This document shows, piece by piece, positions 15,543 through 16,610 of a stretch of DNA of 64,000 nt. The notes below the pieces were generated by a model. It did not search any database, was not told where the DNA came from, and worked only from the letters and a program-made list of their open reading frames with translations. This DNA is from Klebsiella phage phi1_146015. The stretch is from the sequence record PP889466.1; one strand, written 5' to 3'. Made by a program: the position numbers and the translations under genes. Position 1 is the stretch's first letter, and the number at the start of each line of letters is the position of its first letter.

Positions 15543-16610
15543 TCAGAGTCCCGTGAAAGCTACAACGATTTGATAGTGGTCATCGAAGAATTCCCCTTGT
15601 CGTTGCACGACCTCATGTAAGGGCATCCAGAACGCGTCTAACGCATCGTCAGAACCGCCCATAATACGGGGCAGACTTCCATCATTGTTAGGTTCTAACT
15701 TGATGTACTGCGCCACAGTCGGTTTTGAGAAGTATACGGAACGTTTCGGATGATCGAACAGCATCGAATTACGGATTGAACCACGGATAACCTTTTCAGG
15801 AACTTTGATCCGCACCTCTTCGAGCAGTTCACGGATCGCACAATCCAGGAACGTTTCATTTGCGTTTTTGTGTCCGCCAGGAAGGGCTAACGCGTTTTTA
15901 CCTGGTGCGAACTTACGACGAATTACCAGCAGGTGATTGTTGCACACAACCACACTATCACCCGTGCAACAGTTTAGCGCGTCTGGGTATGGGTAGTTTT
16001 TGAATTTCTCCAATTCACTCTCCCATTTCTCGTATTCGTAGAATAAACGCCAGAACGTGTCTTCCATCATCCATTTGTCGATATAATCAACGGTTGCTTG
16101 AGGAACAAAGCGCAACAGTTTCTTATCCCATCCGTTTTTGTGGTTGAAGATAATCGGACGCAGATCGGTTGCTGATAGATCCTTGCCGTCAACCTGAACA
16201 GGATCAACAGGTACGTGTGTCCATCCGAACGCTTTAAGCCAGTATGAACCCGCATCTTTTTCGTAACCGTAGATAGCGATTTTGTCGCCTTTGGTTTCCC
16301 TGATAGCAGTACGAACAGAGGTTTTCCATTTCTCTTCGTTGTAAAGATAATCTGGAATATGTTCAAACTGAACACGAACAACATCTTCGATCGGGAAGTT
16401 AGCGTTTAACCATGAGAAGATCATCGTTTGACGCTCACGCGCTGTCAGAGGGTTTAAAACGTTAGGGTAAGCATATGCTGAACCCAGCAGGATGTAAACG
16501 ATCTTTGCTTCTTCGAGTGCTTTACGCACCATTGCTGCATGACCATTATGGAAGGGTTGGAATCTGCCAATTACGACAGCTTTATCAAATTGTTTCATAA
16601 CGTGCTCCAC
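15543..16610 (-). CDS. bifunctional NMN adenylyltransferase (NadM-type) / Nudix ADP-ribose pyrophosphatase
   Basis: N-terminal VVIGRFQPFHNGH carries the (H/T)xGH nucleotidyltransferase motif. C-terminal Nudix box GGHKNANETFLDCAIRELLEEV. The likely real start is the ATG at 16598 (MKQFDK), which has a GGAG RBS; the ORF-track start at 16610 is a GTG. Confidence 0.85.
   Translation of the reverse strand: MEHVMKQFDKAVVIGRFQPFHNGHAAMVRKALEEAKIVYILLGSAYAYPNVLNPLTARERQTMIFSWLNANFPIEDVVRVQFEHIPDYLYNEEKWKTSVRTAIRETKGDKIAIYGYEKDAGSYWLKAFGWTHVPVDPVQVDGKDLSATDLRPIIFNHKNGWDKKLLRFVPQATVDYIDKWMMEDTFWRLFYEYEKWESELEKFKNYPYPDALNCCTGDSVVVCNNHLLVIRRKFAPGKNALALPGGHKNANETFLDCAIRELLEEVRIKVPEKVIRGSIRNSMLFDHPKRSVYFSKPTVAQYIKLEPNNDGSLPRIMGGSDDALDAFWMPLHEVVQRQGEFFDDHYQIVVAFTGL

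Follow-up and report, generated by a model that had tools for sequence, protein, structure and literature searches.

The minus-strand gene at 15543-16598 in a 64,000-nucleotide stretch of DNA from Klebsiella phage phi1_146015 (PP889466.1; the whole stretch is referred to as the window) very likely encodes the Nmnat component of NARP2, a two-enzyme NAD+-rebuilding pathway, and we put the probability of this reading, which draws on domain architecture, conserved motifs and homology, at roughly 0.8. The protein is predicted to be a fusion of a NadM-type NMN adenylyltransferase with a Nudix domain. Together with five other genes it had been proposed in the original prediction to form a joint toolkit for the processing of NAD, ADP-ribose and nucleotide signals; all six of these genes were found at the positions listed below, all on the minus strand and each with a significant family match. 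They are best read, however, as independent items that a T4-type phage carries among its accessory early genes; for three of them a counter-defence role has been published.

The NadM-Nudix gene and its surroundings

The best megablast matches to positions 13000-21000 of the window showed 94-97% identity with 87-99% query cover (178 phage records matched), and the matched phages were T4-type phages of the RB43 group (Straboviridae, Pseudotevenvirus) with Cronobacter, Enterobacter, Citrobacter and Escherichia hosts, the relatives vB_CsaD_Banach, UPEC03 and vB_CsaM_leB among them. Judged by these matches, the window comes from a T4-type phage that is RB43-like (Pseudotevenvirus). Small early-type genes, mostly on the minus strand, occupy the region from 3 to 40 kb, with baseplate genes on the flanks, and the order of the block tracks that of T4 (NC_000866), which reads nrdC.11-mobD-...-rI.-1-rI-tk-...-tk.4-vs-vs.1-...-e-nudE-...-57B-57A-1-3. 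Four of the six named genes, the counterparts of 57B, Tk.4, NudE and NrdC.11, sit at T4-syntenic positions; the matching region of T4 is without a NadM-Nudix gene. The features assigned at the NadM-Nudix locus are as follows:

15543..16598 (−), predicted fusion of a NadM-type NMN adenylyltransferase with a Nudix domain of the ADP-ribose pyrophosphatase type (Pfam, NCBIfam, PDB, phrog_395)
15999..16598 (−), NMNAT domain (HIGH-motif nucleotidyltransferase), approximate bounds (2QJO alignment; GRFQPFHNGH and SATDLR)
15591..15956 (−), Nudix domain with the box GHKNANETFLDCAIRELLEEVRI (Pfam NUDIX at residues 219-340 of the 355-aa ORF; 2QJO alignment)
16721..16748 (−), promoter-like match to the sigma-70 consensus, TTGACT-16 nt-TATAAT, 5' of the NadM-Nudix gene (11 of 12 positions; a consensus match only)
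15502..15531 (−), terminator-like hairpin with a 13-bp stem, just 3' of the NadM-Nudix stop codon

Pfam recognized an N-terminal CTP_transf_like domain (E 9e-9) and a C-terminal NUDIX domain (E 1.6e-14) in this ORF, and the NCBIfam model for bifunctional NMNAT/Nudix proteins, PRK05379, covered it end to end (E 1.8e-73), with NCBIfam scores that fall under the equivalog cutoffs. Two solved structures, 2QJO (E 5e-55) and 2QJT (E 1.4e-45), aligned over the full length of the protein, phrog_395 matched at E 2e-97, and the homologue in phi-pp2, a phage of the KVP40 species, was 40% identical (E 3e-85). The HxGH, SxTxxR and Nudix motifs were all intact (GRFQPFHNGH, SATDLR and GHKNANETFLDCAIRELLEEVRI). 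The earlier assignment of the gene to the NatV type of KVP40 was borne out by this shared two-domain architecture, the shared motifs and the identity to the phi-pp2 homologue. The KVP40 system, a NadV Nampt and a NatV Nmnat/Nudix enzyme, was reportedly described by Lee, Li and Miller in 2017. The window gene is also collinear over its full length with the bacterial NadM-Nudix genes (Synechocystis slr0787, 2QJO; Francisella, 2QJT); these encode cellular salvage enzymes, whereas the window gene is phage-borne and lies in an early-gene block.

The maximal ORF reaches a GTG at 16610, and the ATG at 16598 is preceded by GGAG; the true start is probably this ATG, giving a protein of 351 aa as annotated in relatives (UPEC03). 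With a promoter match on one side and a terminator-like hairpin on the other, both at the level of consensus only, the NadM-Nudix gene looks like an early transcription unit of its own. A strongly hydrophobic 32-aa ORF (MNIKQIILTIFISLFFGFIGGFLGVLVIASVL; 16624-16722, minus strand), which is annotated in UPEC03, lies between the SPFH gene and the NadM-Nudix gene, and a Pfam scan of it returned no meaningful match. Since the ATG of this ORF overlaps the −10 hexamer, it is unlikely that the ORF and the promoter are both real. On the other side, a gene for a MobD-like HNH homing endonuclease (14086-14871, minus strand) separates the NrdC.11 homologue from the NadM region; this gene is kept in UPEC03 and has three small ORFs in its place in vB_CsaM_leB; its presence or absence among relatives thus points to a mobile-element polymorphism beside the NAD gene.

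The Nampt partner and the probable NARP2 pathway

The partner enzyme Nampt had been stated to lie outside the window, and this was confirmed by a tblastn search of the window, in which no homologue was found. In the complete genome of vB_CsaM_leB, whose NadM-Nudix protein is 98.9% identical to that of the window, a gene for a 477-aa Nampt is located at 148617-150050, about 70 kb from the NadM-Nudix gene; its product scored 460 bits against NCBIfam PRK09198 (cutoff 405 bits) and matched human NAMPT at E 1e-85. At an identity of at least 60%, NadM-Nudix was present in 176 and Nampt in 179 of 50,697 phage records, and both sets cover RB43/KP15-type phages. As relatives 94-97% identical at the DNA level carry it, we infer that a Nampt gene is also present in the genome of this phage.

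The pair of Nampt and Nmnat was named NARP2 by Osterman et al. 2024 (bioRxiv 10.1101/2024.02.11.579819), who reported that NARP2 of KVP40 counteracts NAD-depleting defences including type I Thoeris, that phages are rescued from Thoeris and other NADase systems by expression or knock-in of NARP2, and that the pathway yields excess NAD+ even in defence-free cells. In the supplement of that study (Table S2), the Nampt proteins of vB_CsaM_leE, GAP161 and KP15 are listed as 'Nmnat-associated', so that sister phages of the present one are already on record as carriers, and in a separate survey NadV was found in every NadM-carrying phage (PMC9503650). The window gene has the same NadM-Nudix fusion as KVP40 NARP2, with the HxGH and SxTxxR motifs, and the gene order nrdC.11 ... 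NadM ... tk is common to the window and the KVP40-type phage phi-pp2. KVP40-type phages carry NadR and PnuC; in contrast, neither the window nor the genome of leB gave a match to NadR by tblastn at E<1e-3, and the annotation of leB lists no PnuC, so NARP3 (PnuC and NadR) appears to be absent from this lineage. The experimental data behind the functional readings given here come from KVP40 (about 40% identity, with phi-pp2 as proxy) and from T4 (36-42% identity).

By homology, the N-terminal domain of the fusion protein would join the AMP of ATP to NMN to give NAD+, and the C-terminal Nudix domain would convert ADP-ribose to AMP and ribose-5-phosphate. Early transcription from the sigma-70-like promoter in front of the gene is probable, and Nampt, encoded beyond the window, would supply NMN from nicotinamide and PRPP. 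Thoeris, DSR and SIR2-HerA cleave NAD+ to nicotinamide and ADP-ribose, and the Nampt/NadM-Nudix pair would restore the NAD+, while the Nudix step may return ribose-5-phosphate towards PRPP.

A purely housekeeping or auxiliary metabolic role, in which the pair lifts NAD+ for replication (for example by making up for what phage ADP-ribosyltransferases or the host ligase consume) and NudE and the others serve nucleotide salvage with no defence-specific role, was considered unlikely. The overproduction of NAD+ by NARP2 in the absence of any defence system is in line with such a role, as are the initial report of the KVP40 genes as a salvage pathway (cited in PMC7139368) and the phenotype of the T4 NudE catalytic mutant described below. 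What tells against it is the rescue by NARP2 from Thoeris and other NADase systems, together with the dispensability of T4 acb1 and tk.4 on plain K-12 when they are needed against CBASS and DarTG2, respectively. Since the gain in NAD+ from NARP2 does not depend on a defence system, however, the metabolic role is compatible with the preferred NARP2 counter-defence role, and the two are not mutually exclusive.

Counterparts of T4 early genes

The remaining five genes of the original prediction are the following:

13079..14086 (−), RlaP/PF10127 nucleotidyltransferase, counterpart of T4 NrdC.11 (Pfam E 9.9e-12; 51% identity, E 2e-117)
20246..20746 (−), macrodomain protein, counterpart of T4 Tk.4 (AdfM) (Pfam Macro E 3.2e-6; 36% identity, E 6e-30)
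33950..34483 (−), DUF262/GmrSD_N-domain protein with a DGKQR motif (Pfam E 9.5e-20; 276 phage records)
35446..35859 (−), stand-alone Nudix hydrolase, counterpart of T4 NudE (e.1) (NUDIX E 6.8e-16; 40% identity, E 1e-21; phrog_1185)
37992..38615 (−), predicted 2H phosphodiesterase, homologue of Acb1 (T4 57B) (Pfam Acb1 E 3.6e-49; HTT and HVT motifs)

The gene at 37992-38615 had been put forward as a LigT-like 2H phosphodiesterase and anti-CBASS candidate, and its assignment could be sharpened to a predicted Acb1: it scored 166.6 bits against Pfam PF23474 (gathering cutoff 27), matched PDB 7T26 at E 3.7e-25 and was 42% identical to T4 57B. Its motifs KLHTTIVYS and KPHVTLAY align with the catalytic HxT/S motifs of 7T26, and the gene adjoins the 57A homologue, so that both HxT motifs and the position next to 57A-1-3 are shared with T4 Acb1. 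The T4 gene 57B/acb1 is required against CBASS (bioRxiv 10.1101/2025.11.20.689424), and the window protein would, by homology, cleave CBASS cyclic oligonucleotide signals. In a comparison with the T4 nrdC-57B region at E<1e-4, the listed orthologues were the only T4 genes with a match, and T4 Acb2 (vs.4) was not among them.

Unlike T4 Acb1 and 7T26, the window Acb1 has a C-terminal tail of about 50 aa (…GDKWVILNHDRTKELGEYDSKEAAEKRLRQIEYFKHNG; encoded at 37992-38150, minus strand), for which a Pfam scan gave no meaningful match. The tail is covered by about 201 of 1615 phage Acb1 matches, from the RB43-like group, and a homologue of it stands alone as a 66-aa ORF within the tRNA cluster of vB_SenAc-pSC20, a phage of the Ackermannviridae, with a similar match in Vi01. 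It is conceivable, if a long shot, that the tail adds a second activity, such as the binding of a signal or a host protein, and, separately, that the Nudix domain of NadM closes a loop from ADP-ribose through ribose-5-phosphate and PRPP to NMN. If such a loop operates, NARP2 would be a true recycler of NADase products.

The macro gene lies a few genes downstream of tk, as it does in T4, and its sole NCBIfam match was DarG. A profile of six Tk.4-family members matched, in order, BT1257, SCO6735, OARD1/TARG1, Poa1p-like and DarG structures; because the family profile reaches OARD1/TARG1 structures, the earlier label 'OARD1-like' is fair at the level of the clade. The nearest solved structures of the AdfM/Tk.4 family are those of BT1257 and SCO6735, rather than DarG. 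The DarG-type catalytic residues against which the family was tested were N22 and K80 of T. aquaticus DarG2. An Asn is invariant in the Tk.4 family (GCN motif). For TARG1 we take the catalytic Lys to be K84, and the equivalent residue in DarG is presumably K80; at the column matching TARG1 K84, all six aligned Tk.4-family members, T4 included, have an invariant Gln. This Gln opposite the presumed catalytic Lys suggests that the anti-DarTG2 chemistry may differ from that of TARG1 and DarG.

In T4, tk.4 was identified by HIDEN-SEQ as the single gene needed against DarTG2 and was named adfM, its knockout being sensitive (bioRxiv 10.1101/2025.11.20.689424). The window gene, which belongs to the OARD1/TARG1/DarG clade and shares with AdfM the invariant Asn, would by homology protect against DarTG2, probably by taking ADP-ribose off DNA. 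A DarG2-like macrodomain of chimalliviruses strips the ADP-ribose added by DarT2 from DNA (PMC13309987, Cell Rep 2026), and it is for this protein alone that in vitro activity on ADP-ribosyl-thymidine has been reported. The idea that the macro gene would destroy soluble signals was accordingly not upheld, as the role reported for its T4 counterpart is protection from DarTG2, presumably by de-ADP-ribosylation of DNA. In Vibrio phage GRLPWR (MW344055, 108346-108750), a Tk.4-type macro gene adjoins a gene annotated as ribose-phosphate pyrophosphokinase, which is possibly the NARP1 enzyme Adps; this gene pair hints that, in other groups of phages, macro genes may be tied to NAD pathways.

The second Nudix gene carries a full Nudix box, GX5EX7REUXEEXGU (GHIEKGEEPIHAAIRECFEETGV), and shares with T4 nudE the order vs.1 ... 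nudE ... 57B, its product being 137 aa long compared to 151 aa in T4. ADP-ribose, Ap3A, FAD and NAD are hydrolysed by T4 NudE.1, which also takes the cap off NAD-RNA in vitro, and its catalytic mutant has a mild phenotype, a lysis delay only (bioRxiv 10.1101/2024.04.04.588121). By homology, the window protein would be a general pyrophosphatase of ADP-sugars, NAD and NAD caps. The earlier view of it as a counter-defence enzyme was corrected accordingly, there being no known defence phenotype. For T4 NrdC.11, a literature search found no published function, and nothing was found that links the DUF262 and PF10127 genes to the processing of NAD, ADP-ribose or cyclic nucleotides, as had been proposed for both.

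One toolkit or independent genes

The proposal that the six genes make up a coordinated toolkit for NAD, ADP-ribose and nucleotide signals, a functional island selected as a unit, is very improbable. The six do share a strand and an early-gene block, into which three published counter-defence functions map; yet the stretch from 13 to 38.6 kb in which they are scattered, 25 kb in all, holds about 50 other ORFs as well, and four of the six keep their T4 relative positions in a region where T4 is without a NadM-Nudix gene. Moreover, the numbers of phage records differ widely (NadM-Nudix, 467; Tk.4-type macro, 2663; Acb1, 1615; DUF262, 276), the Nampt partner of NadM-Nudix is about 70 kb away in leB, and NAD-related evidence is lacking for the DUF262 and NrdC.11 genes. 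A single cassette was therefore rejected, and the dispersal, the T4 order and the unlike phage distributions together argue for independent genes rather than one system. Among about 60 window ORFs scanned with Pfam, none had a RyR/RyDEP, NADAR, ADP-ribosyltransferase, Sir2, Tad or Acb2 domain, and no further NAD/ADP-ribose domains turned up. As for the counter-defence function expected of the set, it is supported for the NARP2 Nmnat and Acb1, both already known, and not supported for the DUF262 and PF10127 genes; for counter-defence against Pycsar, no evidence was found.

It is hardly credible that the Nudix domain of NadM, or else NudE, serves mainly as an anti-Thoeris enzyme by breaking down immune signals derived from ADP-ribose (2'/3' cADPR, His-ADPR). 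The proposal has no direct support beyond the ability of Nudix enzymes to cut ADP-ribose-type pyrophosphate bonds and the suggestion of Iyer et al. that soluble ADPr derivatives are what the ADPr-processing domains of viruses work on. Against it stand a 2026 preprint (72 phage lysates screened) stating that no 2'/3' cADPR-degrading enzymes were known before RyDEP, and the orthology of the domain to the Nudix domains of bacterial NadM enzymes of NAD salvage.

Publications already cover the enzyme type, the NARP2 pathway and its occurrence in this group of phages, as well as what the Acb1 and Tk.4 counterparts do, and no new mechanism is revealed by the window. On the preferred reading as independent genes, a T4-type phage stacks already described counter-defence genes early, namely the NARP2 Nmnat, Acb1 and the Tk.4/AdfM macrodomain. 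Because the labels 'cytidyltransferase', 'RNA ligase', 'phosphatase' and 'thioredoxin' persist in databases, the window is useful for annotation, and it may aid the choice of therapeutic phages of Enterobacter, Cronobacter or Klebsiella that can withstand NADase, CBASS and DarTG2 defences.

Several other genes were observed in the window. A lone plus-strand ORF (11578-12276, 232 aa) within the minus-strand early block gave a weak DUF1737 match and matched an Sf6-type tail-needle-knob domain (PF16532, E 7e-40); about seven phage records carry it at an identity of at least 80% (EkoM5VN, 99.6%), the RB43 protein being 78% identical, and this small number of records points to a sporadic accessory gene. 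A gene for a Dcm-type cytosine methyltransferase lies at 10642-11550. The early block also includes a 465-aa fusion of a PIN domain with a PhoH-like ATPase (24059-25456, minus strand). A SPASM-domain protein, the leB counterpart of which is annotated as a radical SAM protein, is encoded at 29471-30622 (minus strand), and a 748-aa VWA-domain protein at 6001-8247 (minus strand).
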